From NCBI GenBank assembly GCA_905215855.1, contig CAJMRT010000003.1:12597-76596 (forward strand): a stretch of DNA of 64,000 nt, written 5' to 3'. Below are positions 1 to 14,353 of the stretch, one piece after another. Position numbers and translations under genes: made by a program. The notes under the pieces were generated by a model, which was not told the DNA's origin, did no database searches, and worked only from the letters and a program-made list of their open reading frames with translations. Position 1 is the stretch's first letter. Each line of letters opens with the position of its first letter. This stretch comes from an uncultured bacterium (GTDB taxonomy: Bacteria > Bacillota > Clostridia > Oscillospirales > Acutalibacteraceae).

Positions 1-3
1 CTG

Positions 4-912
4 TTGAGTGCAGTGGTAATTATGCTCGGAATAAACAAGGGCATTGAGCGACTGAGCAAATTTTTGATGCCTGTTCTGCTTGTTCTGACAGTCGGAATTT
101 CAATCTACACACTCACGCTCCCGAACGCAATGGAGGGTGTTTCGTACTACCTCATTCCCGACTTCAGCAAACTGTCAATTTGGACATTTGCGGCAGCACT
201 CGGTCAGCTGTTCTTCTCAATGAGCATTGCAATGGGAATTATGGTAACCTACGGTTCATACACAAAAGATGAGGTAAACCTCACAAAGTCGGTTAACCAA
301 ATTGAGATTTTTGACACAGCCGTTGCGCTTCTTGCAGGTCTTATGGTAGTTCCTGCGGTTTATGTATTCAGCGGTGAAGAAGGTCTTGGTGCAAGCGGTC
401 CCGGACTTATGTTCATCACACTTCCAAAGGTATTCAACGAAATGCCTGCCGGCGGAATCATCGGATTTTTGTTCTTTGTTCTTGTATTCTTTGCAGCTAT
501 CACAAGCTCAATCTCCGTAATGGAAGCAATTGTTTCTTCGCTTATGGACAAGTTCAAGCTTACACGAATCAAGTCCTGTCTTATAGTTATCGGCATCTGC
601 CTTATTATGGGTATTCCGTCATCACTCGGCAACGGTGTATGGTCAAATGTTAAGATTCTCGGAATGGACTTCCTTACATTCTTTGACTTCCTGAGCAACA
701 GCATTATTATGCCGATTGTCGCACTTTGCACTTGTATTCTCATCGGCTGGGTTATCAAGCCAAAGACTATTGCAGACGAAATCACAAGGAACGGCGAGCG
801 TTTCAGCAGAAGGGCTTTGTTTGATGTTATGATTAAATATATAGCTCCAATCTGCCTTGTGTTCATCTTAATTTCCTACACACTTGCGCAGTTCGGCATT
901 ATTTCACTTTAA
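4..912 (+). CDS. Sodium-dependent transporter of the NSS/SNF family, 3' portion. The reading frame is open to the window start, so the N-terminus is missing.
   Basis: Multi-TM protein with typical NSS C-terminal half motifs (GLGASGPGLMFITLP, FFVLVFFAAITSSIS). The frame is open from base 1. Confidence 0.7.
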   Translation: MSAVVIMLGINKGIERLSKFLMPVLLVLTVGISIYTLTLPNAMEGVSYYLIPDFSKLSIWTFAAALGQLFFSMSIAMGIMVTYGSYTKDEVNLTKSVNQIEIFDTAVALLAGLMVVPAVYVFSGEEGLGASGPGLMFITLPKVFNEMPAGGIIGFLFFVLVFFAAITSSISVMEAIVSSLMDKFKLTRIKSCLIVIGICLIMGIPSSLGNGVWSNVKILGMDFLTFFDFLSNSIIMPIVALCTCILIGWVIKPKTIADEITRNGERFSRRALFDVMIKYIAPICLVFILISYTLAQFGIISL

Positions 913-1107
913 CCCGACACTCTAACACGATTATTTATGAATTCAGACAGTAATATCACCGAAATGAATCCTAAATAATTGTCTTTAAATGAAACATACA
1001 ACAATTAACTATTCTCCGTTTATACCATGAACTCTTGAAATTATATGCAATAATTGGTATAATTACAGTTACAGCTCATTTGCTGAATTTTAGGGAGGAC
1101 AAATACT

Positions 1108-3054
1108 ATGTGTCAGAAAAAACCATTTTACATTACAACGCCTATTTATTATCCGTCAGGCAATCCCCACATCGGTCATTGCTACACCACCGTTGCGTGC
1201 GATTCCATCGCCCGTTACAGACGAATGCAGGGATATGATGTTATGTTCCTTACGGGTACGGATGAACACGGTCTTAAAATTGAACAGAAGGCTGCCGAAA
1301 AGGGTGTTACTCCCAAAGAGTATGTTGACGAAATTGTAAAAACCTTTAAAGGTTTATGGAAATTTATGGACATAAGCTATGACAGATATATCCGCACAAC
1401 AGACGATTACCACATTGAAACGGTTCAGAAAATTTTTAAGGAGCTGTATGACAAGGGCTACATCTACAAGGGCGAATACAAGGGCAAATACTGCACCCCC
1501 TGTGAAAGCTTCTGGACAGAAAGCCAGCTTATTGACGGCAAATGTCCCGAATGCGGACGAGAGGTTACAGAGGCAAAGGAGGAGGCATATTTCTTTAAGA
1601 TGTCACCTTTTGCCGACAGAATTGAAAAGCTCCTCACGGAAACAGACTATTTACAGCCAAAGACAAGAGCGGTTGAGCTTGTAAACAACTTTATCAAGCC
1701 GGGACTTGAAGACCTTTGCGTATCGAGAACAACCTTCAAATGGGGCATTCCAGTTACATTTGACGAAAAGCATATTGTTTATGTTTGGATTGACGCACTT
1801 TCAAACTATATCTCCGCTCTCGGCTACAAGAATGAAAAATTTGACGAATTTGACAAATACTGGCCTGCCGATGTTCATATGGTAGCAAAGGACATCATGC
1901 GTTTTCACGCTATCATCTGGCCTGCAATGCTTATGGCTCTTGACCTTCCGCTTCCAAAGCATCTTGCCGTTCACGGCTGGATTACTTTCAACGGACAGAA
2001 GATGTCAAAGTCACTCGGCAATGTTGTTGATCCGTTTGTACTCGGCGAGCGTTACGGTGCTGACGCAATCCGTTATCACATTATGCGTGAAATGGCTCTC
2101 GGTGCAGACAGCTCATTCTCAAACGAAATTATGATTAACCGTATCAATTCCGACCTTGCAAACGGTCTTGGCAACCTTGTTTCAAGAACAGTTGCAATGG
2201 TTCAGAAATATTTCGGCGGCACACTTCCCACAGAGCGTGAGAACGGCGAATTTGACGATGAGCTTATCGAAATCGCAACATCGCTCCGTGCAAAGGTTGA
2301 CGATTTCATGGACAAAACTCAGCTCCAGAACGCACTTGCCGAAATCTTCAAGCTTGTTTCCCGTGCAAACAAGTACATTGACGAAACTGCTCCGTGGGTT
2401 ATTGCCAAGGACGAAACAAAGAAAGCAAGACTTGCAACCGTTCTCTACAATCTTCTTGAGGCAATCCGTATTGCCTGCACCCTCCTTTCGGCATTTATGC
2501 CAACAACAATGCCAAAGGCTCTTGAGCAGATTGGTGCGTGTGAAAAGTGTGCAAGCTACGAAAACTGCGACAAGTTCGGCGTTCTTCCTGCTGATGTCAC
2601 AGTTCACAAGGGAGATGCACTCTTCCCACGAATTGATGTTGAAAAGGAAATTGAAGAACTCAACAGCATCATCAAGAACAACGAGGGCGAAAGCGAGGAA
2701 ACAAAGGCGCTCCGTGAAGAGCTTGAAGGTGTTGCACAGATTGGCATTGATGATTTTGCAAAGGTTGACCTCCGTGTGTGTGAGGTTAAGACCTGCGAAC
2801 CCGTTAAAAAGAGCAAAAAGCTTTTACAGTTCACAATTTTTGACGGTGTAAAGGACAGAACCGTTGTCAGTGGTATTGCAAACTACTACAAGCCCGAGGA
2901 GCTTATCGGCAAGAAGATTATTCTTGTTCAGAACCTCAAGCCTGCAAAGCTTTGCGGTGTTGAAAGCTGCGGTATGATTCTTTCTGCAGTTCACGGCGAT
3001 GATTTAAAGGTTGTTTTTGTTGACAATATGCCTGTCGGCTCAAAAATCTGTTAA
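1108..3054 (+). CDS. metG: Methionyl-tRNA synthetase with a C-terminal tRNA-binding (EMAP/Trbp111-like) domain
   Basis: Class I aaRS HIGH motif (NPHIGH) and KMSKS motif. Zn-knuckle CPECG. C-terminal OB-fold tail (...LVQNLKPAKLCGVESCGMILSA). Length 648 aa. Confidence 0.95.
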   Translation: MCQKKPFYITTPIYYPSGNPHIGHCYTTVACDSIARYRRMQGYDVMFLTGTDEHGLKIEQKAAEKGVTPKEYVDEIVKTFKGLWKFMDISYDRYIRTTDDYHIETVQKIFKELYDKGYIYKGEYKGKYCTPCESFWTESQLIDGKCPECGREVTEAKEEAYFFKMSPFADRIEKLLTETDYLQPKTRAVELVNNFIKPGLEDLCVSRTTFKWGIPVTFDEKHIVYVWIDALSNYISALGYKNEKFDEFDKYWPADVHMVAKDIMRFHAIIWPAMLMALDLPLPKHLAVHGWITFNGQKMSKSLGNVVDPFVLGERYGADAIRYHIMREMALGADSSFSNEIMINRINSDLANGLGNLVSRTVAMVQKYFGGTLPTERENGEFDDELIEIATSLRAKVDDFMDKTQLQNALAEIFKLVSRANKYIDETAPWVIAKDETKKARLATVLYNLLEAIRIACTLLSAFMPTTMPKALEQIGACEKCASYENCDKFGVLPADVTVHKGDALFPRIDVEKEIEELNSIIKNNEGESEETKALREELEGVAQIGIDDFAKVDLRVCEVKTCEPVKKSKKLLQFTIFDGVKDRTVVSGIANYYKPEELIGKKIILVQNLKPAKLCGVESCGMILSAVHGDDLKVVFVDNMPVGSKIC

Positions 3055-3138
3055 TTTATGTTCGTGCAGACAGTTTGATAAATTAAAAACTATCTATGCC
3101 CGAGCGTAACACGACAATTATCCGTACAATATTTCAAT

Positions 3139-3186
3139 GTGGGACTGTTGCAAATTTTACTCATTTGCAACAGCCCCACTTTTCTT
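3139..3186 (+). terminator. Rho-independent terminator of metG
   Basis: 16-bp stem (gtgggactgttgcaaa / tttgcaacagccccac, 1 mismatch), 9-nt loop, then TTTTCTT. It overlaps the nominal ATG of track ORF 3137. Confidence 0.75.
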
Positions 3187-3214
3187 GACAAAGCCTCATA
3201 CCTATTATTATAAT
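3185..3214 (+). promoter_or_regulatory. Sigma-A type promoter (TTGACA-18-TATAAT) driving the accessory insertion
   Basis: Perfect -35 TTGACA at 3185-3190 and perfect -10 TATAAT at 3209-3214 with an 18-nt spacer. It sits immediately after the metG terminator and upstream of RBS AGGAGAG and ATG 3251. Confidence 0.55.
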
Positions 3215-3250
3215 GATGATGACCATGAACTCCCATTCCCAGGAGAGAAA

Positions 3251-3727
3251 ATGTCCCCGGATGGTGGTAATAACCGGTATGTTTACACAATTTACGGTGT
3301 GAACAATCCGAGAGTTATTTTTAATAACAACACTACTGATCCTGCAACCAGACAACAACATCCCGGTATTAATCAACCTGGAATTGAAATAACAGAAGAT
3401 GAAATGTGGGTAGTAAATGAAACTGCATATAGCAAAAAACCACAGGGAATTACTGTTCATTTTTATCGTCCTTCTGATTGGGAATATTGGGACACAAGAA
3501 TTTACTTCTATGAAGATAATAATATTCTGATGGAATGGCCTGGTACGCTGATGAATAGTCAAATGTACGATAATTGGTTAGCCTATACGATATATGGTAT
3601 AGACAATCCTAAAGTAATATTTAATGATTCTCAAAATAAGCAGATACCAGGAGTATTACAAGAAGGTCACTTAGTAACACGGGATGTGTGGTATAAAGAT
3701 GGTATATGGTCAACATATAAACCGTAA
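3251..3727 (+). CDS. Hypothetical protein with a CBM25/CBM26-like starch-binding module flanked by a repeated YTIYG(V/I)(N/D)NP(R/K)VIFN motif. No signal peptide, so it is likely a fragment of a multi-module amylase.
   Basis: The start is re-placed at Met39 of the track ORF (RBS aggagag). Internal repeat NRYVYTIYGVNNPRVIFNN / NWLAYTIYGIDNPKVIFND. The core ITVHFYRPSDWEYWDTRIYFY...EWPGTLM resembles starch-binding beta-sandwich modules. This family assignment is from memory. Confidence 0.35.
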   Translation: MSPDGGNNRYVYTIYGVNNPRVIFNNNTTDPATRQQHPGINQPGIEITEDEMWVVNETAYSKKPQGITVHFYRPSDWEYWDTRIYFYEDNNILMEWPGTLMNSQMYDNWLAYTIYGIDNPKVIFNDSQNKQIPGVLQEGHLVTRDVWYKDGIWSTYKP

Positions 3728-3811
3728 TATACTTTGATAAGCAATCGGATGACAAAGTCTTTTGCTATGTCATCCGATTACAATATACTATAACAAAAAG
3801 AGTGATAGTGT

Positions 3812-4699
3812 ATGAATAAAAAAACTAAAATTATATTGATAATTGTATTAATTGTAGCATTTATAGCATTAATAATACTTTTGCTTCATCCTTGGAAGAG
3901 TAACAAATCAGATGGTACGGAGTATTATATGTCAAAAAAATATAACTATTGGTTTGAGGTGGATAATGGTCAAGCAACTTTGATTAAATATACGGGTGAA
4001 GAGTATCATGTTAAGCTTCCGTCAAGTGTTTATGGAGTTCCAGTTACAAAGTTAGGTGAGTATGAGGTGCTTAATCTTTCAGGAGCAGCTAAAAGGGGAA
4101 TATTCGAAGACAGTAATGTGTCAGAAGTGAGTATCCCTGAAGGTGTAACGGAAATATGTAATGATGCATTTTATTCTTCAGGTCTCTGTGAAGTGAATAT
4201 ACCTTCCAGCGTTAGAGTAGTCGGGACAAGGGCGTTTGCTTTTTGTAAGTATTTAAGGTCTGTGGAATTTGAAACAGGAATAAAAACAATAAGTGAATCA
4301 ATGTTTAGTAATTGTAAAAACCTGCGTTTTATCGAATTGCCAAGTAGTGTAGAAAAGATAGAAGGTGATGCCTTTGCAGAATGTGCGTTACAAAAAATAG
4401 ATTTACCTGAAAACATAAATACAATTGAATCTTATGCATTTAGGGAGTGTGATTCTCTAACATTTGTTACTATACCACCAAAAGTAACATCTATTAATAG
4501 TGGGACGTTTTATAGCTGCGACTTTTTAGAAAAAGTAAATATTCATGATGAAGTTAAATATATAGCTAATGATGCCTTTGACAGATGTGATAAACTTACA
4601 ATCTGCGGAATAAAGGGCTCATATGCCGAGCAATATGCAAACGAACACAATATACCTTTTGAAGAATTAGATGCAACTATTGAGTTTCTAAACAAGTGA
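3812..4699 (+). CDS. BspA-type leucine-rich-repeat (LRR_5-like) surface protein with an N-terminal TM/signal anchor
   Basis: N-terminal hydrophobic segment. Repeated units of the form xxCxxLxxIxIPxxVxxIxxxAFxxC. C-terminal tail CDKLTICGIKGSYAEQYANEHNIPFEEL. Confidence 0.6.
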   Translation: MNKKTKIILIIVLIVAFIALIILLLHPWKSNKSDGTEYYMSKKYNYWFEVDNGQATLIKYTGEEYHVKLPSSVYGVPVTKLGEYEVLNLSGAAKRGIFEDSNVSEVSIPEGVTEICNDAFYSSGLCEVNIPSSVRVVGTRAFAFCKYLRSVEFETGIKTISESMFSNCKNLRFIELPSSVEKIEGDAFAECALQKIDLPENINTIESYAFRECDSLTFVTIPPKVTSINSGTFYSCDFLEKVNIHDEVKYIANDAFDRCDKLTICGIKGSYAEQYANEHNIPFEELDATIEFLNK

Positions 4700-5157
4700 G
4701 TAACTGTTTGTTGATATTATTTTGCATTATAGGGTTACCATGTATATACTATGGTGATGAAATAGAGTTAGATGGGAGAGTTGATGAAAAAGAAGGATGC
4801 AGATACCCTATGGATTGGGAACATAACTATGAAGATAATTCTATATACAATTTGTATAAAAAGCTATGTGTTATTAGAAAAGAAGAGGAATTAATTGATG
4901 GTGGGTTTAAAATTGTTCATATGTCAGATGAGATATTCTCATTTGCTAGATTTTCGGATAAAAGAGTTTATTTTGTAATTTGTACACAGAATAATACTTC
5001 AACTTCAGTTAATATAAATGTAGGTGTTTTTGGAATTTGTGAAATAAACAAAATAAATAACTTATTGAATAATGAGATTCATTATGAGTTTAACAAAAGC
5101 ATATTGTCAATCCAGGTTGTACCGAATGAATCATATCTCTTTTTTATAGACATATAG
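4696..5157 (+). pseudogene. C-terminal remnant of a GH13 alpha-amylase/neopullulanase-type enzyme (conserved region VII plus C-domain only)
   Basis: GLPCIYYGDEIELDG matches the conserved GH13 'G-P-x-IYYGDE(I/L)G' region. It is only 153 aa, has no catalytic N-terminal regions, and abuts the LRR gene stop. Confidence 0.5.
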
Positions 5158-5175
5158 AGAATTTTATAAAGTTAG

Positions 5176-6099
5176 GTGATTGTAATGAAAAAATTCTTAT
5201 GTATAAATATTAGCGTTATTTTGTTGTTTTTGTTTGCCTTGAGTGGTTGTAGTGAAAACATAGAGATTGCTGAGGATAATATATATAACTTCATAAACTA
5301 TCAAAATGAAGAAGTATACGACATAGAGCAAATAGAGTTAAGTAATAGTTTGAGTAAAAGTTGTATCTCGTATAAATTTACATATATTTCTGATGGTTAT
5401 CAAGTAAAAGCTTATATATCTATTCCTCTGAGTCTTGTTGAAAATCAATCGCTAGGAAAGTGTATATTATATAACAGAGGAGGAAATAGCAAAATCGGTT
5501 TGCTTGGTGATGAAGATACCGCAAAACTTTGTGTATTGACAAATAGGATTATTGTTGCATCGCAATATAGAGGAGCAGATGGCGGAAGTGGTAAAGATGA
5601 GTTTGGTGGTAAAGATCTTAATGATGTTATAAAACTAATTGATTTGTGTGAAACACATTTTGACTTTATTAGCATGAAAGATTTTTGTGTTGCGGGTGTT
5701 TCTCGTGGTGGTATGATGACTTATATGACTGCCAAGCAGGATAATAGAGTTAAAGGAATTATAGCCATATCTGCTGTTAGTGATTTGTTTCAATCTTACG
5801 AAGCTCGTGAAGATATGCAAAAATTACTTTACAACTATATTGGGACAACTCCTGAGCAAAACCCAGAAGAATATGAAAAAAGATCAGCTATTTATTGGAC
5901 AGAAGAAATTACTGTACCTGTTTTGATTATTCATAGCAAATATGATGAACAAGTTTCTTTTTCACAAGCAGAAGATTTGTATAAAAAATTAAAACAAAAT
6001 AATAAACATATATATTTTAGTGTGCGTGATGATAATATACATGGCTTAAGTGATGGTGATCTCGAAGTAATACTAGATTGGCTTGATACAAATATTTAA
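5176..6099 (+). CDS. Lipoprotein, alpha/beta-hydrolase fold (S9 peptidase / dienelactone-hydrolase-like)
   Basis: Lipobox LSGC. Nucleophile elbow GVSRGG (GxSxG). ~300 aa with an acid/His region near the C-terminus (DDNIHG). Confidence 0.55.
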   Translation: MIVMKKFLCINISVILLFLFALSGCSENIEIAEDNIYNFINYQNEEVYDIEQIELSNSLSKSCISYKFTYISDGYQVKAYISIPLSLVENQSLGKCILYNRGGNSKIGLLGDEDTAKLCVLTNRIIVASQYRGADGGSGKDEFGGKDLNDVIKLIDLCETHFDFISMKDFCVAGVSRGGMMTYMTAKQDNRVKGIIAISAVSDLFQSYEAREDMQKLLYNYIGTTPEQNPEEYEKRSAIYWTEEITVPVLIIHSKYDEQVSFSQAEDLYKKLKQNNKHIYFSVRDDNIHGLSDGDLEVILDWLDTNI

Positions 6100-6152
6100 G
6101 TATATAGGGCTAAAGTATATAGGGCTAAGTTAACGAAAAGGATGTTAAATAA

Positions 6153-6452
6153 GTGTTTTTTGATGTTGATAAAAATAAATATGTAATGCAAATTGACTCG
6201 ACAGATAGATTAATCAATAAGATACCTAAAATTGAGGCTCATCTAAAAGGAATTCGTCACAAAGCATTTTCTGTATTAATATTTAATAATGATGATAAAA
6301 TGTTGATTCAAAAGAGAGCAAAAGAGAAGTATCATTCTGGCGGATTATGGTCTAATGCGTGTTGTGGTCATCAAATTACTCAGGATTTATTATACGAAGC
6401 CCAAAAACGTTTGTTTGAAGAATTAGATACAACATATGAGCCTACAGACTAG
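6153..6452 (+). pseudogene. idi: Truncated isopentenyl-diphosphate delta-isomerase (type 1, Nudix-like) N-terminal fragment
   Basis: HKAFSVLIFNNDDKMLIQKRAKEKYHSGGLWSNACCGH matches the IDI-1 signature (hRAFSVFlFn...LLlQrRa.KithPGlWtNtcCsHP). It is only 99 aa against ~175 aa for the intact enzyme. Confidence 0.5.
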
Positions 6453-6542
6453 AAAGTAGTAGTTGTTAAAAATCAGCGGAACATAGATGATATTGCATAT
6501 TCCGCTGATATTATTTTATAATATTTATTTTACCAAGGTGAT

Positions 6543-7409
6543 ATGATGAAAAAAATAAAAAAATATAAACTACCTATCGGGATATTGTGCGTAGTGTTAG
6601 TGATATTTATATTGTTGCAAATCTTTTCAAGTGAACATTGGTGGTTTGGGTACACATATGAAACCGATGGATATACAAATAAATCGGCAACAATTGTAAA
6701 GATAAACTACCCGTCAGAGAAAGTTGTAATTCCTTCAACAATATTTTTCCATAAAGTAAATGCTTTAGGCGGATATATTACAGGATATAATTTGTGGGGT
6801 GCGGAAAGAAAAGGAATGTTTGAGGATAACGACATAGTAAAGGAGATTGTTGTTTCTGAAGGGATAGAGTATACATTTAACCGATGTTTTTACAATTGTA
6901 CTTCATTAGAAAGCATACAACTCCCAAGTACTATAAAACAATTCTCTTTTACGAATTGTGAAAGTCTGAAAAATGTTAATTTTAATGGTGATGTAAAAGA
7001 AATTGAAAGTTTATCATTTTCAGGCTGTTCTTCATTAGAAACGCTTGTAATTCCGGATAATATTGCTGATCGTGGAATAGCATACGGTGCTTTTTCCGGT
7101 TGCACATCACTAAAAAGTATAAATATTCCCGATAATATTACTGCAATACAACAATATACATTTAGTAATTGCATATCCTTAAAACAGTTAGTTTTGTCTA
7201 AAAATATTAAGAGCATTGAATGGGGTGCTTTTGAAAACTGCACCTTGCTGGAGAAAATTATCATTTACGATAAGGCAGAAGATATTGCGGATAATGCCTT
7301 TGAAGGTTGCGATAAGCTCACAATTTATGGAATAAAGGGTAGTTATGCAGAACAGTATGCAAACAAACATGACATATCATTTGAAGAATTGAATAACATA
7401 GTTGACTAA
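6543..7409 (+). CDS. BspA-type leucine-rich-repeat surface protein, paralog of 3812..4699
   Basis: N-terminal TM. LRR_5-like repeats (NCxSLxxIxIPxxI). Tail CDKLTIYGIKGSYAEQYANKHDISFEEL is near-identical to the paralog tail. Confidence 0.6.
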   Translation: MMKKIKKYKLPIGILCVVLVIFILLQIFSSEHWWFGYTYETDGYTNKSATIVKINYPSEKVVIPSTIFFHKVNALGGYITGYNLWGAERKGMFEDNDIVKEIVVSEGIEYTFNRCFYNCTSLESIQLPSTIKQFSFTNCESLKNVNFNGDVKEIESLSFSGCSSLETLVIPDNIADRGIAYGAFSGCTSLKSINIPDNITAIQQYTFSNCISLKQLVLSKNIKSIEWGAFENCTLLEKIIIYDKAEDIADNAFEGCDKLTIYGIKGSYAEQYANKHDISFEELNNIVD

Positions 7410-7510
7410 TTATATTTGCGGAGATTAAATAAAGTCAAATTTTAGAATTTAAATGCCGACAAGTTATAGCTTTTAATGCTATTGCCTGATACTTTTAGGG
7501 AGATATACCG

Positions 7511-8284
7511 ATGTCACTTTACAACAACATTTTCGATGCACACGCACATTATGACGACAAATGGTTTGACGATGACCGTTTTGAGCTTTTGGAAAACATT
7601 CACACAAAGGGTGTGTGCGGAATTGTCAACAATGCGGTTGACCTTGAAACGGCAAAAACCTGCATTGAATATGCCGAAAAATATGATTTTATGTATGCCG
7701 CAGTCGGATTTCATCCCGAAAACCTCGAAAATATTCCGAACAATTATCTTGAACAGCTTGCACAGCTTTCAAAACATAAAAAGGTTGTCGCAATCGGCGA
7801 AACAGGTCTTGATTATCATTGGGATATTCCGAAAGACTTGCAAAAGCGTGTTTTTGAGGAACAGATCAGGCTTTCTCTTGACCTTGAAATGCCGCTTATA
7901 GTTCACGACCGTGAGGCTCACGGTGATGTGTACGACCTTCTGAGAAAATACAAACCGAATGCGCTGGTTCATTGCTTTTCGGGCAGTGTTGAGCTTATGC
8001 GTGAAGCGGTTCGCATGGGAATGTACATCAGCCTCGGCGGTGTTGTTACATTCAAAAATGCCCGTCACAGCCTTGAAGTTGCTTCGGAAATTCCGCTTGA
8101 CAGACTTCTGCTCGAAACCGATGCCCCATATATGGCACCGGTGCCGTTCCGTGGCAAGCGTTGCGACAGCTCTATGATTGTCTATGCCGCAGAAAAAATC
8201 GCATCTCTGCGTAATATGAGCATTTCGGAACTCCTGCAAATCACCTGCGACAACGCAAAACGATTTTACAATATTGATGATTGA
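7511..8284 (+). CDS. tatD: TatD-family metal-dependent hydrolase/DNase
   Basis: N-terminal FDAHAHYDD, internal GETGLDYHWD, C-terminal LLETDAPYMAP: the canonical TatD/YabD motifs. This is the usual downstream neighbour of metG in Firmicutes. Confidence 0.9.
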   Translation: MSLYNNIFDAHAHYDDKWFDDDRFELLENIHTKGVCGIVNNAVDLETAKTCIEYAEKYDFMYAAVGFHPENLENIPNNYLEQLAQLSKHKKVVAIGETGLDYHWDIPKDLQKRVFEEQIRLSLDLEMPLIVHDREAHGDVYDLLRKYKPNALVHCFSGSVELMREAVRMGMYISLGGVVTFKNARHSLEVASEIPLDRLLLETDAPYMAPVPFRGKRCDSSMIVYAAEKIASLRNMSISELLQITCDNAKRFYNIDD

Positions 8285-8290
8285 TTCATA

Positions 8291-8340
8291 AAAAAAGACA
8301 CGGTCGGAATCCTTATTCGGAAATCCGACCGTGTTTTACA
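8291..8340. terminator. Bidirectional intrinsic terminator between convergent tatD and the 8396..9226 gene
   Basis: 11-bp stem acacggtcgga / tccgaccgtgt with an A-run 5' and a T-rich 3' side. Confidence 0.6.
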
Positions 8341-8395
8341 TTCACAAATTTTTAACTATTCACTTTTACCTACATTTGGCATATTGCCAAATGTA

Positions 8396-9226
8396 TCATT
8401 CTTCGCTTGCTTTTCTGCGCATATTTTTGTGCAGGAAGAAGAGTCCTATTGAAATGATGAGGAAAACCACAGAACAGATTGCAAGTGCGATAAGCACGCT
8501 GTTCATACTCTGAACAAAGAGGTTGTAGAAAGCTCTTGACTCAATATTGATTTTGCTCACATAGCCTGTTGAAAACAAAACAGCAGGGATAATTCCCACC
8601 GTGATAAATGTTCCGGATGTTGCGTAACAGATATATCTGACCGCCCTGTGCTTCCAACGGTTTGCAAAGATGATAATCACACAAAGGATTGCGGCAAAAA
8701 CTACCAGTCCGCCTATTAGAAGCGGCATCATATCTTTCAAGGCCGTGAGATACGGCGAAAGCATTGAAAACATCGGTATTCTGAGATTCGCCTCATAAAC
8801 AGACGCAGCTTTATTTATAAGATATTCCCTGCTGTTACTGCTTGCAACCTTAACATTATTTTTCTTTATGTAGCTGTCAAGCTCTGAATTAAAACGCTGA
8901 CGAAAGGCAACCGTGCTGATTTTTGCCGAGCCGCCGTTATAATAGCTTTCAAGGTAATCCTCTGTATCGTCATGAATTGTTACAGTTTCAACCACATTAC
9001 CAAAAAAGCTTTCTTTAAGACCCGACGCGTAACCGAGGTCAACAAGCTCTCTTGTTATTTCGTCCTTTTTGTCGGTAAAATAATTGGTTGTGTTCATATT
9101 GTCGAGAATATACGAGGGATTCAGAATCGTGGCTTCAAGCATCACCGAAATTGAAAGCAGAAGCAACACAAATGACAAAACAAACGAAAGCAAGCAGAAA
9201 ACAATACCTCTTATCTTAGAATGCAT
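8396..9226 (-). CDS. Hypothetical integral membrane protein (one N-terminal TM, three or four C-terminal TMs). Last gene of the sortase operon.
   Basis: Hydrophobicity pattern only. No recognisable catalytic motif. Confidence 0.4.
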   Translation of the reverse strand: MHSKIRGIVFCLLSFVLSFVLLLLSISVMLEATILNPSYILDNMNTTNYFTDKKDEITRELVDLGYASGLKESFFGNVVETVTIHDDTEDYLESYYNGGSAKISTVAFRQRFNSELDSYIKKNNVKVASSNSREYLINKAASVYEANLRIPMFSMLSPYLTALKDMMPLLIGGLVVFAAILCVIIIFANRWKHRAVRYICYATSGTFITVGIIPAVLFSTGYVSKINIESRAFYNLFVQSMNSVLIALAICSVVFLIISIGLFFLHKNMRRKASEE

Positions 9227-9227
9227 A

Positions 9228-9953
9228 TCAGTTGCCCCCCTTATCTATCTGGGTTCCCGACACAAGCTTTGCATACACGAAAAATCTTTTTGATGTGAGT
9301 CCTAATTCATCAAAGGGATAACAGGTGTACATTATCAGATTTTCGTAATCAGCAGAAAGGTCGTAGGCGCTGCTGTCGTTAGCACTTTTTACGGCTGTAT
9401 CGGTAATTTCATACACATAGTTACCATAGCTTGTCTTAATTTCAACCCTTTGACCAACCTGAGCATTTTTCAAACCGTTAAAATAGGTATTGTTATGACC
9501 TGCAACAAGAATTGTTCCTCCGTAACCGGGTACAAAACTGCCTGCGTAAATGCCTACGCCGTTTCTCAAAGCAACATCACCGTCGCCAAAGAACAGATTT
9601 GCATCAACATTGCAGTCGCTTATTATGAGTTCACCGAACAGATTGCCATAGTCTGGATACTGAACGGAATCTTTTTTTACATATGATTTTTCCTTACCGT
9701 CAGAATCTTTCTTGGTCACGGTAGGAACAGTTGCGTTTTCTGACACGGGCACAAAAATATTATCGTACTCTGTCGAATAATTCTTTTCATTATCCGAAAA
9801 GAACATACCCATAGCCGAAATTATCGGAGAAAATGACGGAATAAACGCCAAATACAGCACCAGATATGTTACCAGACAAAATATAATGGGAAGAATTATA
9901 AAACCCTTCCCATTCTTTGATCTATGACCGTGTCTGACTTTTTTATCAGACAT
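9228..9953 (-). CDS. Sortase-family transpeptidase (class B-like by size, ~240 aa, single N-terminal TM)
   Basis: N-terminal TM. Catalytic His in ILVAGHNNTYF, the TLxTC motif as LIMYTCYPF, and a downstream Arg (TSKRFF). Confidence 0.6.
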   Translation of the reverse strand: MSDKKVRHGHRSKNGKGFIILPIIFCLVTYLVLYLAFIPSFSPIISAMGMFFSDNEKNYSTEYDNIFVPVSENATVPTVTKKDSDGKEKSYVKKDSVQYPDYGNLFGELIISDCNVDANLFFGDGDVALRNGVGIYAGSFVPGYGGTILVAGHNNTYFNGLKNAQVGQRVEIKTSYGNYVYEITDTAVKSANDSSAYDLSADYENLIMYTCYPFDELGLTSKRFFVYAKLVSGTQIDKGGN

Positions 9954-9958
9954 TTAAA

Positions 9959-10549
9959 TCAAGCTCTTTCTTTCTTAGTTTTTACAAGGTAGAAAGCTCC
10001 GCCTGCTACCATAATGAGTGCTACTGCAGAAACTGCTGCAACGCCGCTGAAATCAGCTGCAACACCTGTTGTCTTGATTGTGCTGCCGTCTTTAACCTGT
10101 CCAACCTTTGAAAGAGTAGGAACAGCTGAAAATGCAACCTTGCCGTTTGCGTCATAAATTGTAAGAGTCTTTGTTGATGTGTCATATGACATTGTCATAC
10201 CAAGAACACCTACGCCCTCCTTGCCGTAAGCAAGAAGTGTCTGCTTCTGAGCAAATGTGAGATCTGCGATGCTAGATGCGCCTGAGTTTTCAAGGAAGCT
10301 CTCGCCCTTCTTGAGTACAGCGATAATCTGTGATGACTCATCTGCTGTCATGTCAATTGTGTTAAAGTAGTTCTCAGCCTGGTTTACAAACTCGCTCGGA
10401 ATAACCATCTCTGAGCCATTCATCTTAACAGATGTTTTGAGTTCGTCAAGAACAGCCTGCTCACTGTCATTGATGCCTGCTGCAAAAGCAGTAAAGGCTG
10501 TTGCTGCAACAAGGATGAGTGCTACTAACATTGCTGATAATTTTTTCAT
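9959..10549 (-). CDS. Secreted small protein with a cell-wall-sorting-signal-like C-terminus. Candidate substrate of the adjacent sortase.
   Basis: Signal peptide MKKLSAMLVALILVAATAFTAFA. C-terminus ...STIKTTGVAADFSGVAAVSAVALIMVAGGAFYLVKTKKERA is a (non-canonical KTTG) motif, hydrophobic stretch and basic tail. Confidence 0.45.
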   Translation of the reverse strand: MKKLSAMLVALILVAATAFTAFAAGINDSEQAVLDELKTSVKMNGSEMVIPSEFVNQAENYFNTIDMTADESSQIIAVLKKGESFLENSGASSIADLTFAQKQTLLAYGKEGVGVLGMTMSYDTSTKTLTIYDANGKVAFSAVPTLSKVGQVKDGSTIKTTGVAADFSGVAAVSAVALIMVAGGAFYLVKTKKERA

Positions 10550-11220
10550 AGTTCATACCACCTTGTATTTTATTTTGTTTTCATCAGCAAGAAGCTTCAC
10601 GGATTCATTGGCATAATACGCATCTGCAAGCCGAAAACTGCAGGGAGCACAATGGAAAACTTCACCATTTAACTTCTTTGTACAGTATTATACACCACAT
10701 TTCGCATTTTGTAAAGCATTTCATTATAAATATTTGTTATATTCGGAAAAATTACAATCCTTTTGTCAAATCAGGTATTTTCATTGTGCATTATGCCGTT
10801 CCGAATCAATTAAGTACTGTGTCACACCGTGTCGGTTTCGTCTGGACTTTGTATTTTTATCCGTCTTTGCACATCATTTTTGCATAAAATATACATACTG
10901 GTTTGTAAATTACTCTTTGAACAAATATCCGTGCAGCGGCTCTGCCTGCATATTATTACAGTAATTGCTTTCTTATCATGACATATTGTGACATACTAGT
11001 ATATGAGTAGAAATTTTATCGGTTATTTACCTTATTTTTGTTTATTTTTTTCGCAAATTTTGCCTGAGCTTTATTTCAGCTCGTTATTTATGTACTTATC
11101 GGCTAACTGTAACAAAATAATCATATATTTTATGTATGTTTTGTACACATAAAAAATCAGAGTAATTGCATATTCTGCAAAAAAAGACATCTTTTTTCTT
11201 TATTGAAACCTTTGTTCATA

Positions 11221-11249
11221 TTGATTTTTTTACTGATTTAAAATATAAT
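11221..11249 (+). promoter_or_regulatory. Sigma-A promoter (TTGATT-17-TATAAT) for the capsule/EPS operon
   Basis: -35 ttgatt at 11221-11226, 17-nt spacer, -10 tataat at 11244-11249. Followed by RBS aggagtg and ATG 11259. Confidence 0.5.
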
Positions 11250-11258
11250 AGGAGTGTC

Positions 11259-11366
11259 ATGTTTAAAAGTATTTTGTGCTTTTGTGCCGTTTTTTGCCTG
11301 CAGTACTTTTGTGTTGACTGTGGCATTATCTCGTCATATGCGTACAAAAGCCGAGAAGAGGAGTAA
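11259..11366 (+). CDS. Small Cys-rich ORF (35 aa, MFKSILCFCAVFCLQYFCVDCGIISSYAYKSREEE) directly upstream of the CPS operon. Possibly a leader peptide or small membrane protein.
   Basis: Strong RBS and promoter. Five Cys in a hydrophobic 25-aa stretch. The stop is 4 nt before the wzz start. Confidence 0.3.
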   Translation: MFKSILCFCAVFCLQYFCVDCGIISSYAYKSREEE

Positions 11367-11370
11367 TTTA

Positions 11371-12093
11371 ATGGAGATAACATTCAAGGACATAACGAGA
11401 ATAATAAAGAAAAACTTGGCTTTTATTGCAGTGCTTTCTCTTTTGTGCGCTACAGTATCTTTCTTTATTACAACCTTTTTTATTCCGAAAACCTACACCT
11501 CAAGTGTAAAGCTATATGTTGAAACCAACTACAAGAGCCAGTCGGCATACGAGGATTACCAGAGTGTAAACTATGCAAAGAATCTTGTGCTTACATATAT
11601 TGAGCTTCTTGATTCAAACTCATTCTACAATCAGATTTCCGAAGCGCTCAACGAAAAGTACACAGCGTCACAGCTTAAATCTATGATTAAGTTTGAGAGC
11701 ATTGAAGATACCGAGGTATTTAAGGCTCTTGTAAATTCGAGCAGTCCTACCGAATCAAAAAGAATAGGCGACGCAATTGCGAAGATTGCACCAAAGACGA
11801 TTGCAAATGTAAAGGACAACGCAAAGCTTAAAATTGTTGACAAGGCAACTCTTCCAAAAGCTCCTGCTTCACCGAGTGTATCCAAAAATGTGATTATCGC
11901 ATTTGCGGCAGGTCTTATCATTGCTTTGATTATTTCATTCGTCCGTGACTTCCTTGATGTCAAAATCAAGTACAACGAAGAGATGACAACCGTTCTTGAC
12001 CTTCCGCTGCTTGCCGCTATTCCCGACTTTGAATATTTTTCGAATCAAAAGGCAGCCGAAAAGAAGTACGGCAACTATGAATCGGGTTATTAA
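11371..12093 (+). CDS. cpsC: Polysaccharide chain-length determinant (Wzz/CpsC/YveK family)
   Basis: N-terminal TM, periplasmic-type domain, second TM near the C-terminus (NVIIAFAAGLIIALIISFV). RBS gaagaggag. It sits next to the BY-kinase gene. Confidence 0.8.
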   Translation: MEITFKDITRIIKKNLAFIAVLSLLCATVSFFITTFFIPKTYTSSVKLYVETNYKSQSAYEDYQSVNYAKNLVLTYIELLDSNSFYNQISEALNEKYTASQLKSMIKFESIEDTEVFKALVNSSSPTESKRIGDAIAKIAPKTIANVKDNAKLKIVDKATLPKAPASPSVSKNVIIAFAAGLIIALIISFVRDFLDVKIKYNEEMTTVLDLPLLAAIPDFEYFSNQKAAEKKYGNYESGY

Positions 12094-12114
12094 TGTTAAA
12101 GGAGTGAAGCTGCA

Positions 12115-12828
12115 ATGAAAAAGACTAAAATCGACCGTTCAATCGACACCGAGGCACTCGGCTTTCAGGTTCGTGAATCATACAAAACAGCCAGAACAAA
12201 CATCGCATACTCAATCTTTAAAAAGGGCTGCAAAAAGGTAGCGTTTACCTCGTCAACAAAGGGCGAGGGCAAAACGGTAACATCAATCAATGTTGCGTCT
12301 GCGCTTGCTCAGCAGGTTGGCACAAAGGTTATCGTTGTTGAATGTGACCTTCGCCGTCCGAGAGTCAACACCGCACTCAAAATCTCACCTACCCCCGGCA
12401 TTACAAATTACCTTAACGAGGAATGTTCTCTTAAAGAGGTCACCAAGGATACAAAGATTGAAAACCTCAAAGCTATTACCTACGGAGCTATTCCGCCAAA
12501 CCCGTCGGAGCTTCTTGCAAGTGAAGCTATGGCAGAGCTTATAAAAACCCTTGAAAAGGATTATGACTATATTATTTTTGACACACCGCCAATCGGCGTT
12601 GTTATTGACGCTCTCCCCATTATGAAGGCATCTGACGGTGTTGTTATTGTTGCAAGAAACAATTCAACGACATACCCCGAGCTTGAAAGGACGGTTGAGG
12701 TTATTAAAAGAACCAACGCAAAAATTCTCGGTGTTATTCTTAACCGTGTAAAGCCTCACGAAACCCGCAAGGGCAAGGGCTACTACTCAAGATACGGCGG
12801 ATATTACAAAACAAAAACAAAAGACTGA
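12115..12828 (+). CDS. cpsD: Tyrosine-protein kinase (BY-kinase, CpsD/CapB/YveL family)
   Basis: Walker A TSSTKGEGKT. Walker A' and Walker B (IIFDTPP). C-terminal Tyr-rich tail KGYYSRYGGYYKTK. Confidence 0.85.
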   Translation: MKKTKIDRSIDTEALGFQVRESYKTARTNIAYSIFKKGCKKVAFTSSTKGEGKTVTSINVASALAQQVGTKVIVVECDLRRPRVNTALKISPTPGITNYLNEECSLKEVTKDTKIENLKAITYGAIPPNPSELLASEAMAELIKTLEKDYDYIIFDTPPIGVVIDALPIMKASDGVVIVARNNSTTYPELERTVEVIKRTNAKILGVILNRVKPHETRKGKGYYSRYGGYYKTKTKD

Positions 12829-12886
12829 TAACAAGCCGCCTGCGTAAGCATAAACTAACAGGCTCGTCCTGTCCACGGAGGGGAAA

Positions 12887-13561
12887 ATGGAATCCGCAAA
12901 AAGCAAAAGTATAAATAAAAGTGCGTCACCAAGTGGACACGCAATTAAAAAAAAGCCTGTTTATGATTTTTTCAAACGGATTTTTGACATTGTATGTTCA
13001 CTCATCGCTTTAATAATCCTTTCACCTGTATTTCTCATTATGGCAATTCTTGTTAAAACAACAAGCGAGGGTCCTGCATTCTTTGCACACAAGCGTGTCG
13101 GAAAGAACGGCAAGGAAATTAAAATCTACAAATTCAGAAGTATGGTGACAAATGCCGAGGAACTTATCAAACAGTTCACCCCTGAACAAAAGGCTGAATA
13201 CGAAAAGAACTTCAAACTTGAAAATGACCCGAGAATCACAAAAGTTGGAAAATTTATGAGAAAAACAAGTCTTGATGAGTTGCCGCAGCTTTTGAACATT
13301 CTTAAAGGTGACATTTCAATCGTCGGTCCAAGACCCGTTACGGAGGTTGAAACCGAAATTTACGGCAACTACCGTGATATGCTTTTGAGCGTAAAACCCG
13401 GTCTTACAGGTTTTTGGGCAGCAAACGGCAGAAGTGACACTACATACACACGCAGAAGAGCAATGGAAATTTACTATGTAAAGAACCGCTCTTTGTGGCT
13501 CGACATTAAAATTATTTTCAAAACTTTCGCCTCTGTATTCAAGGGCGAAGGTGCAGTTTAA
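12887..13561 (+). CDS. Initiating undecaprenyl-phosphate sugar-1-phosphate transferase (small 'bacterial sugar transferase' family, PglC/WcaJ C-domain type)
   Basis: Single TM followed by the conserved KRVGKNGKEIKIYKFRSM ... LPQLLNILKGDISIVGPRP motifs. Confidence 0.85.
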   Translation: MESAKSKSINKSASPSGHAIKKKPVYDFFKRIFDIVCSLIALIILSPVFLIMAILVKTTSEGPAFFAHKRVGKNGKEIKIYKFRSMVTNAEELIKQFTPEQKAEYEKNFKLENDPRITKVGKFMRKTSLDELPQLLNILKGDISIVGPRPVTEVETEIYGNYRDMLLSVKPGLTGFWAANGRSDTTYTRRRAMEIYYVKNRSLWLDIKIIFKTFASVFKGEGAV

Positions 13562-13573
13562 GGAGGTACTGTG

Positions 13574-14353
13574 ATGAAAGCTGTTATACTTGCAGGTGGT
13601 TTTGGAACGAGAATTTCCGAGGAATCACAGTTTAAACCGAAGCCTATGGTTGAAATAGGCGGAATGCCGATTATGTGGCACATTATGAAGCTTTATTCCC
13701 ACTACGGAATTAACGAATTTGTTATATGTGCAGGCTACAAACAGCATGTAATCAAGGAATGGTTTGCCGACTACTTCCTTCACACCTCCGACATCACCTT
13801 TGATTTTACACAGGATGACAAGATAATCGTTCACAACAAGAGAGCGGAACAGTGGAAAGTTACTGTTGTTGATACAGGACTTCACACAATGACAGGCGGC
13901 AGACTCAAAAGAGTTCGTGAGTTCATCGGTGACGAACCGTTCTTTATGACCTACGGTGACGGTGTTTCCGATGTTGATATAAACGCTCTGCTCGAATTTC
14001 ACAAGAAGAACGGAAAGCTTGCCACTATGTCTGCGGTAAAGCCTGACAGCCGTTTCGGCGTGCTTGATTTATCCGAGAACAGCGAAGTCAAGGCATTTCG
14101 TGAAAAGAGTGCCGTTGATTCAGGCTGGATTAACGCAGGCTTTATGGTGCTTGAACCGAAAGTGCTTGACTATGTCAAGGATGATACAATAATGTTTGAG
14201 CGTGAACCGATGGAACAGCTTGCAAGCGAGGGTCAGCTTATGTGCTACAAGCACAACGGCTTCTGGCAGTGTATGGACACATTGCGTGACAAAGAAAGAC
14301 TCGAAAAGCTATGGACTGAAAATAAAGCTCCGTGGAAAGTGTGGGAAGATTGA
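13574..14353 (+). CDS. rfbF: Glucose-1-phosphate cytidylyltransferase
   Basis: MKAVILAGGFGTRISEESQFKPKPMVEIGGMPIMWHIMKLY is the hallmark N-terminus of DdhA/RfbF. The ATG at 13574 is preferred over the GTG at 13571. Confidence 0.85.
   Translation: MKAVILAGGFGTRISEESQFKPKPMVEIGGMPIMWHIMKLYSHYGINEFVICAGYKQHVIKEWFADYFLHTSDITFDFTQDDKIIVHNKRAEQWKVTVVDTGLHTMTGGRLKRVREFIGDEPFFMTYGDGVSDVDINALLEFHKKNGKLATMSAVKPDSRFGVLDLSENSEVKAFREKSAVDSGWINAGFMVLEPKVLDYVKDDTIMFEREPMEQLASEGQLMCYKHNGFWQCMDTLRDKERLEKLWTENKAPWKVWED

Follow-up and report, generated by a model that had tools for sequence, protein, structure and literature searches.

Why are metG and tatD, two core genes, held apart by 4.3 kb of AT-rich DNA in the genome of an uncultured gut bacterium of the Acutalibacteraceae? 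The stretch examined here, hereafter the window, comprises 64,000 nucleotides of contig CAJMRT010000003.1 (assembly GCA_905215855.1). All coordinates are positions in the window unless a comparison locus or contig, designated by an L-number, is named. On the plus strand, metG, encoding methionyl-tRNA synthetase (1108..3054; Pfam tRNA-synt_1g, E 2e-115), is followed by a block of 4,345 bp (3144..7488, plus strand) and then by tatD, encoding a TatD-family hydrolase (7511..8284, plus strand; Pfam TatD_DNase, E 3e-81). The block replaces 16 nt of the native metG terminator, and alignment with strains that have an empty site breaks at 3143/7489. The first-pass annotation of this DNA had described the block as a horizontally acquired, partly decayed surface-protein island. 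Our analysis instead makes it probable that the block comes from Ruminococcus bromii itself, as a copy, at a second site, of a 4.3-kb piece already assembled in the hypervariable surface-protein region that normally lies upstream of cas9. Four observations carry this reading, namely the source of the sequence, its collinearity with that source, the positions of the junctions and the polymorphism among strains. The block is the outcome of ordinary within-species gene shuffling and not a foreign island decaying in place.

The compositional contrast that drew attention to the block is real. Its G+C fraction (GC) is 0.316, as compared to 0.408 for the remainder of the window, and it is the lowest-GC stretch of its size across the 64 kb, the runner-up being at 0.356. 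In 500-bp windows from 3251 to 7500, GC ranged from 0.27 to 0.35, while metG and tatD gave 0.42-0.48. GC at third codon positions (GC3) was 0.20-0.33 in the six coding units of the block and 0.45-0.47 in metG and tatD. A Pfam scan identified two BspA-type leucine-rich repeat (LRR) proteins, a lipoprotein of the S9/alpha-beta-hydrolase type and three gene remnants, and the gene list initially drawn up, remnants included, was confirmed by Pfam, by a PDB match and by comparison with an intact idi gene. None of the six plus-strand products carried an integrase, transposase or other mobility or recombinase domain in the Pfam scan, the other open reading frames (ORFs) being antisense shadows inside those genes. 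A tRNA scan of positions 1-12000 found no tRNA, and there was no Rfam match near the block.

The source of the block was found through an LRR1 allele that ends in EFLNK like that of the window and is on record in 121 collection blocks. Positions 3177-7488 align as a single block of 4,312 bp to L120-L127, with 98.3-98.4% identity and one or two gaps. In these loci the module lies about 2.3 kb upstream of cas9 and contains the same six units, i.e. CBM26 remnant, LRR1, GH13 remnant, hydrolase, idi remnant and LRR2. Block and cas9-side copies disagree at 52-59 positions, a divergence within the range seen between conspecific metG/tatD flanks (96-99% identity). Since the sequence of L120-L127 runs on past both ends of the block, the block is an internal piece of the cas9-side module at a second site. 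The three remnants of the module are cut at points identical to those of the block; thus, the decay predates arrival at metG-tatD. Two earlier claims, that the DNA came from a foreign donor and that its genes decayed where they now lie, are not supported, given this collinearity with other R. bromii genomes and these shared cut points. Accessory surface-protein loci of R. bromii have a GC of 0.27-0.35, like the block.

Presence or absence of the block among relatives was settled by exact-protein look-ups and not from species representatives. A MetG search of GTDB species representatives gave at best 89% MetG identity with poor synteny around metG, and presence or absence of the block was undecidable from them. 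Near-identical proteins and cluster members are named Ruminococcus bromii in RefSeq (WP_303827916.1, WP_303807166.1). Of 22 human-gut contigs examined that encode an identical MetG, most had tatD 155-288 bp downstream and 2 had the block; the identical MetG protein is thus present in conspecific contigs both with and without it. Identical TatD is listed in 266 collection blocks, and all 24 contigs examined from this set were without the block. Contigs retrieved with the exact hydrolase carried the block at metG-tatD in 22 of 22 cases, as did those retrieved with the exact LRR2 (22 of 22), and several independent samples were represented. Presence in some conspecific contigs and absence in others means that the block is a real insertion polymorphism within R. 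bromii, with at least 22 carrier contigs forming a minority lineage. The metG/tatD flanks of strains with an empty site are 96-99% identical to the window.

The accessory, AT-rich nature of the insertion was therefore correctly recognised at first pass. That metG and tatD are normally adjacent proved true within R. bromii, where they adjoin in every examined contig without the block, and in two outgroup species the genes are 115 bp (L004) and 52 bp (L005) apart. It was only partly true of the wider family: among 80 relatives, tatD was within 500 bp of metG in only 16 and 1-6 kb downstream in 13, and in the rest it was absent from the available downstream DNA, including L002 and L003, the closest species representatives with 10 kb downstream.

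The empty metG-tatD spacer itself occurs in three lengths, viz. 155 bp (L081 11948-12102), 288 bp (L082 11948-12235) and 246 bp (L088 9755-10000). These differ by small GC-rich hairpin elements, one being CGGCGAGTCGCCG right after the metG stop codon and another GTAGGGGCGGATATTATCCGCCCGCAAG with about 130 nt of AT-rich sequence. This spacer, equivalent to window 3055-3143, is an indel hot spot even without the block.

Comparison of empty and filled sites defined both junctions to the nucleotide. The empty site reads CAATGTGGG, CGGTCAATGACCGCCC and ATACTTTTAGGGAGATATACCGATG in succession, with the metG terminator (-19.5 kcal/mol) followed immediately by the tatD ribosome-binding site. In the filled site, CAATGTGGG is followed by an insert that opens with ACTGTTGCAAATTTTACTCATTTGCAACAGCCC and CACTTTTCTTGACAAAG and closes with GCTATTGCCTG, after which ATACTTTTAGGGAG resumes the native sequence. 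In short, CGGTCAATGACCGCCC stands between GTGGG and ATACTTTTAGGGAG in the empty site, and a 33-nt filler plus the module stands there in the filled one. The target lost 16 nt at insertion, 5 nt of the native metG terminator were kept, and the tatD ribosome-binding site was preserved directly 3' of the right junction.

At the left junction lies a chimeric terminator hairpin (3139..3183, plus strand; inverted repeat I2) of -23.5 kcal/mol and z -6.6, followed by a T-run. It is composed of GTGGG from the native metG terminator, the 33 nt of filler, and CAC plus TTTT from the module, where empty sites have GTGGGCGGTCAATGACCGCCCAT. The filler, the palindromic sequence ACTGTTGCAAATTTTACTCATTTGCAACAGCCC (3144..3176, plus strand), was present among 127 loci only in metG-tatD islands and was absent from the source module. 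It was not found elsewhere in the window, in L120 or in the other loci; a metagenome scan returned one unrelated contig of 45% GC, and a viral scan returned nothing. Judged by predicted folding, the filler and its flanking bases rebuild the metG terminator. The right junction falls within the terminator of LRR2 (7453..7488, plus strand), which has lost its descending stem and T-run. In the source, ATTACCTG continues into TCGGCATTATTTTT and the hairpin reaches -23.7 kcal/mol (z -8.7); in the window only the ascending half is left, at -9.1 kcal/mol and z -0.6, which is no better than shuffled sequence. Since metG retains a terminator and LRR2 has none, transcription of the block probably continues into tatD.

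All carriers, including the divergent carrier L099, share one identical junction and filler. The restriction of the filler to metG-tatD islands, that of L099 among them, points to a single event. From the position of both junctions in hairpins, the loss of target bases and the presence of filler DNA, we infer joining by illegitimate recombination of the end-joining or template-switch type at hairpins, and not by transposition or site-specific integration. Target-site duplication was considered and rejected, because the two ends have only the 6-nt ACTTTT in common and the target is 16 nt short. The 35-nt repeats of the source locus do not set the limits of the block either: its left end lies 13 nt within the left repeat, and its right end falls about 330 nt short of the right one.

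The module carried to metG-tatD is itself a composite, and each step of its assembly is visible in the sequences of other genomes. A search with LRR1 showed that most R. bromii genomes have, in order, a 1,897-aa protein, LRR1, a 96-aa ORF, LRRx (336 aa) and LRR2. The 1,897-aa protein has PG_binding_1, GlyHyd-like, Big_2 and CBM26 domains, and its gene is intact in L114, L116, L117 and L119. Positions 3194-4723 and 6541-7483 of the window match this LRR-array locus at 96-98%. A search with the hydrolase led to a different locus, beside a D-alanylation-like operon, where the hydrolase and idi are followed by AMP-binding, carrier-protein and MBOAT genes; this locus (L106-L113) is 97-98.9% identical to window segment 4853-6426 and has an intact 188-aa idi in L106. 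The starting point was an array of genes for small, putatively membrane-anchored LRR_5 proteins (LRR1, LRRx, LRR2) downstream of the 1,897-aa wall protein ending in CBM26 modules. The gene for this wall protein was then truncated next to an insertion sequence (IS) remnant of the IS256 family, leaving the CBM26 tail and a TTGACA/TATAAT junction promoter. The CBM26 remnant corresponds to the last ~530 nt of the gene, and in the truncated versions the coding sequence upstream is replaced by about 20 nt of unrelated sequence, CACTTTTCTTGACAAAG, which lies after the 3' end of a Transposase_mut (IS256-family) remnant.

Next, LRRx was swapped for a segment comprising the GH13 remnant, hydrolase and idi, related to the locus by the D-alanylation-like operon. 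The left joint of this segment is at 4723/4724, where DNA from downstream of LRR1 meets a GH13 remnant longer than that of the D-alanylation-side locus. The right joint is at a 13-nt microhomology, TTTGAAGAATTAG (6414-6426, repeat D1), which codes for FEEL; the window follows idi up to this point and past it switches to sequence resembling the tail of LRRx, GATACAACA, coding for DTT. This joint is microhomology-mediated; idi lost everything past it, and LRRx most of its length. Finally, the internal 4,312-bp piece of the finished module entered the metG terminator in one lineage.

The promoter noted at first pass right after the metG terminator is present, as a predicted sigma-70-type TTGACA-18-TATAAT sequence (3185..3214, plus strand) with a 12/12 match, the best in the region. 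It lies directly 3' of the strong left-junction hairpin. It does not, however, belong to this site. The -35 element lies in the junction sequence, and the -10 TATAAT corresponds to YYN codons of the CBM26 reading frame. All truncated modules have the TTGACA -35, which the intact 1,897-aa gene lacks. The -35 lies in sequence that begins about 45-65 nt after the 3' end of the Transposase_mut remnant and recurs elsewhere as a 35-nt unit. Since the -35 is already part of the junction sequence in the source module, the predicted promoter is best described as a junction promoter carried in with the module and not made at the metG-tatD site. IS-generated hybrid promoters, in which a -35 in the IS end is fused to a -10 in adjacent DNA, have been described for IS256. 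The predicted promoter resembles them in that, in the source module, its -35 lies near an IS256-family remnant and its -10 in truncated CBM26 coding sequence. The 35-nt unit is at most a candidate IS terminus: the Transposase_mut remnant is C-terminal (profile positions 298-377 of 379), and no intact IS copy was recovered to define the terminus.

Among the six units, all on the plus strand, three genes are intact. LRR1 (3812..4699) is a BspA-type LRR_5 protein with a putative membrane anchor at its N-terminus (Pfam LRR_5, 199.3 bits, E 2e-59; cut-off 27.7), and its homologues, named R. bromii LRR protein, occur in hundreds of contigs. LRR2 (6543..7409), the second protein of this type and with a like putative anchor (128 bits against the same cut-off), is encoded by DNA 96-97% identical to that of its counterpart at the source locus; the two proteins of the block are 36% identical to each other. 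Both translations have a basic start followed by a hydrophobic N-terminal stretch, which fits a predicted signal-anchor. Between them lies the hydrolase (5176..6099; Pfam Peptidase_S9, 80.7 bits, cut-off 22.6), identical at 301-302 of 304 residues to proteins named R. bromii prolyl oligopeptidase family peptidase; esterase families match as well. Its translation contains the Ser (GxSxGG), Asp and His motifs as GVSRGG, HSKYDEQV and DDNIHG, and its signal peptide, inspected by eye, ends in the lipobox LSGC (MKKFLCINISVILLFLFALSGCSEN). LRR1, hydrolase and LRR2 would form the functional cargo of the block, putative surface or adhesion proteins together with a lipoprotein esterase or peptidase.

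The remaining three units are remnants. That at 3197..3727 is a CBM26 module (Pfam CBM26, E 8.6e-24, for ORF 3137/3251-3727) and matches the last part of the intact L114 gene at 97% identity. The starch-binding-module fragment of the first reading is accordingly correct as to its family, but it is the 3' end of the gene for the 1,897-aa wall-associated protein and not an amylase relic. The GH13 C-terminal remnant, of the neopullulanase/maltodextrin-glucosidase type (4726..5157), matched MalZ residues 475-555 of 605 in a phmmer search of PDB (E 1e-12); the Pfam Alpha-amylase match was weak or borderline and covered profile positions 334-363 only (ORF 4696-5157). With the equivalent of only ~475-555 of a 605-aa maltodextrin glucosidase, it is devoid of the catalytic (beta/alpha)8 domain with its Asp-Glu-Asp triad. 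The third is an N-terminal remnant of idi, encoding a type 1 isopentenyl diphosphate isomerase of the NUDIX family, fused to an LRR-gene tail (6153..6452). Only 99 codons of idi are left, covering NUDIX profile positions 2-56 of 134, and the full NUDIX fold with its C-terminal catalytic Glu region is missing. A hairpin follows this fusion (6469..6512, plus strand; inverted repeat I17).

Two observations concern the LRR genes in general. Many LRR1 alleles (P0273, P0275, P0290, P0293 and others) end in DTTIQSVN, the LRRx tail, instead of DATIEFLN. The 3' ends of the three LRR paralogues, over about 110-200 nt, share 75-87% DNA identity though the proteins are only ~36% identical overall, which suggests gene conversion at the 3' ends.

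We also considered how the block came to be shared among strains. L099 has the same junction and filler in a mosaic context; it is identical to the window over ~4000-8325 and 2-6% divergent leftwards, with about 2.5% divergence in metG. Divergence in its CBM26 remnant is patchy, and this remnant has acquired a further stop codon and lost 1 nt. L081, a strain with an empty site, shows no mismatch over 2.5 kb of the left flank. The mosaic structure of L099 and the flank identity of L081 fit homologous recombination moving or removing the allele, with the CBM26 remnant free to decay; the allele thus appears to have passed between strains by recombination in its flanks. Divergence from the cas9-side copies is uneven, at ~0.4% of codons within the GH13/hydrolase/idi core as against 4-8% for the ends and the spacers, and this pattern also looks recombinational. 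Synonymous changes between block and cas9-side copies equal or exceed non-synonymous ones in LRR1, hydrolase and LRR2, the substitutions being too few for an informative ratio of the two rates (dN/dS).

Several points weigh against the copying of a cas9-side piece by illegitimate recombination. The ACTTTT (6 nt) at both ends of the insert could be a short target duplication or microhomology, although this leaves the 16 missing nt unexplained. The filler lacks an identified source, and it may derive from a donor context, or from a recipient terminator allele (hairpin GTGGGACTGTTGCAAAT to ATTTGCAACAGCCCCAC), that has not been seen; if it were a pre-existing terminator allele, the left junction would be a 7-nt CACTTTT microhomology. 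Duplication and relocation are both possible; assemblies that break inside the block, and L102, a contig of 1,472 nt covering only 4643-6114, hint at a second near-identical copy in the same sample. The prophage lysis genes, IS remnants and serine recombinases beside the source module, and the 35-nt repeat around it, leave room for a dedicated mechanism of mobilisation in trans.

This last point is the core of an alternative that we consider unlikely, in which the block is a mobilisable cassette moved by an enzyme acting in trans (an IS256-family transposase, a serine recombinase, or a hairpin-targeting HUH or intron-like system) or by phage packaging, with terminator hairpins as preferred target. 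A 35-nt direct repeat, AAAA[A/T]AACTT[A/G] followed by CACACTTTTCTTGACAAAGCCTCA, does bracket the cas9-side module (L120 8236-8270 and 12860-12894; likewise in L115, L121-L127, L130 and L131), its left copy following an IS256-family transposase remnant and its right copy truncating a phage scaffold-like ORF. In L129 (3586-3760) there is a hybrid in which the upstream flank of the right repeat is joined to the CBM26 remnant downstream of the left one, as in a tandem duplication or a circle junction. The surroundings supply prophage lysis genes, an McrBC/reverse transcriptase island, serine-recombinase elements, phage capsid remnants and Transposase_mut remnants; the left neighbours of the module vary between genomes, some of the cas9-side contigs are catalogued as viral, and both junctions in the window fall in hairpins. 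But the ends of the block fall elsewhere than at the 35-nt repeats, insertion cost 16 nt of target and left no target duplication, and only one second-site insertion was found. The loci with differing left neighbours all keep the module by cas9, which fits elements inserting beside a fixed module. A stricter version, in which an unrecognised cassette excises at the 35-nt sites (L129 being its circle or tandem form) and re-inserts in terminator hairpins through an enzyme in trans, with the filler as its footprint, is decidedly improbable, because the block is not bounded by the 35-nt repeats.

A comparably poor case can be made for an island from a distant low-GC donor that decayed in place between metG and tatD. 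The GC of the block (0.316 vs 0.408), its GC3 (0.20-0.33 vs 0.45-0.47), its three gene remnants and its presence in only some strains speak for this view, which is nevertheless very unlikely: the whole block, with the same remnants and break points, is 98.3-98.4% identical to the cas9-side module in many R. bromii genomes, its parts trace to intact R. bromii genes, and the R. bromii loci carrying them all have 0.27-0.35 GC. The low-GC contig L106 was examined as a foreign donor and rejected, as the same locus lies on contigs of 0.8-2.1 Mb and its near-identical proteins are named R. bromii. An ancient foreign origin of the LRR and hydrolase genes themselves may be a separate event. That metG-tatD was the ancestral place of the block, and that most R. 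bromii strains have since lost it by deletion, is more improbable still. Presence and absence alone give no direction, and the spacer is prone to indels, as its three empty-site lengths indicate; yet empty sites hold the complete native terminator and the filled site only 5 nt of it, and the block ends inside the LRR2 terminator and the junction sequence, both of which continue at the cas9-side locus. Moreover, outgroup species have the two genes adjacent, and carriers are a minority with one identical junction and filler, as expected from a single event. Assembly artefact, i.e. a chimeric contig joining the cas9-side module to metG-tatD, can practically be dismissed: near-identical sequence does exist at other loci and some assemblies do break inside the block, but the same junctions recur at 100% identity in several independent samples and with different assemblers, on contigs spanning both flanks, and 52-59 positions tell the block apart from the cas9-side copies. 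The copying of a cas9-side piece within the species is therefore the reading adopted here.

Compared with known systems, the block is a strain-specific islet, probably made by illegitimate recombination, and no new kind of system. It shares with classical horizontally acquired genomic islands its strain variability and its deviating base composition and GC3, but has no mobility gene, tRNA site, flanking repeats or donor outside the species. Strain-specific genomic islets, which lack mobility genes, arise by illegitimate recombination and spread by flanking homology, are a closer match: the block is 4.3 kb long, compositionally distinct and confined to a minority of strains, it is without integrase, tRNA or target duplication, its junctions are without long homology, and L099 is a recombinant carrier. 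It differs from such islets in that its source is identifiable as a near-identical longer copy at another chromosomal locus of the same species, and in that its 33-nt palindromic filler rebuilds the terminator that was disrupted. The source module, lying between variable mobile-element cargo and cas9, recalls the variable regions next to prophages and CRISPR-cas loci in which morons and defence genes accumulate. In contrast to these, the module had no match in PADLOC, its PHROGs matches were only to generic LRR and esterase families, and the window copy lies wholly outside that neighbourhood.

The proteins closest in kind to LRR1 and LRR2, both of which score far above the LRR_5 gathering threshold (PF13306), are BspA-like LRR_5 surface proteins such as BspA of Tannerella forsythia, and CBL14720.1. 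The LRR/dockerin protein CBL14720.1 belongs to the R. bromii amylosome, and LRR proteins are known at the R. bromii cell surface (PMC4611034). Unlike these proteins, LRR1 and LRR2 are short (288-295 aa), have a predicted N-terminal membrane anchor and belong to a tandem, recombining array of paralogues; no dockerin, Big_2 or sortase motif was found in them by Pfam. The literature consulted, R. bromii genome papers included, has LRR/dockerin amylosome proteins and nothing on this locus.

Some further features of related loci were recorded. L130 (8377-11400) and L131 (862-3660) contain arrays without LRR1, in which the CBM26 remnant runs into a second CBM26-tail fragment and LRRx; this arrangement would be expected from recombination between two CBM26-tail copies, and both contigs are in IMG/VR as viral. 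A third context of the hydrolase, with 91% identity to window 5120-6340 and only short pieces of the GH13 and idi remnants beside it, was found in L103 and L104 (~7000-14000). It is a 7-kb low-GC stretch (0.27-0.33) in DNA of 0.40-0.48 GC, between a SUF operon and PadR/two-component genes. Genes of defence type adjoin both source loci: those for a caspase-like peptidase, two ThsB-type TIR proteins and a prokaryotic STING/CAP12 protein are found in L110 (5200-8050), and those for McrBC, a reverse transcriptase and TnpV in L118 and L124 (700-6900). In L108 (3000-8000), 5 kb of 0.46-0.53 GC with almost no called genes, possibly an rRNA operon, lies beside the IS/hydrolase locus. To the right of tatD, window 8395-12000 contains two surface ORFs, a sortase and the start of a Wzz/tyrosine-kinase/sugar-transferase polysaccharide cluster. 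This region is only 82% identical in L088, L090-L092, L095 and L096, whose metG/tatD are 96-97% identical, and is a deeply divergent allele of the sortase/exopolysaccharide region. A second low-GC stretch (~0.29), apparently intergenic, lies at 10500-11500, upstream of a Wzz-like gene at 11254.

Although R. bromii has a keystone role in the human gut as a degrader of resistant starch, its surface variation at the strain level has, to our knowledge, been little described. The metG-tatD block is a clean, datable and well-resolved example of probable illegitimate recombination at terminator hairpins, in which every step of apparent decay can be traced in other genomes. A low-GC block that breaks a conserved gene pair need not be foreign, and caution is called for when horizontal transfer is inferred from GC content. 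The block also points to a family of small, putatively membrane-anchored LRR proteins that, together with a lipoprotein hydrolase, undergoes shuffling and presumably selection in gut populations.

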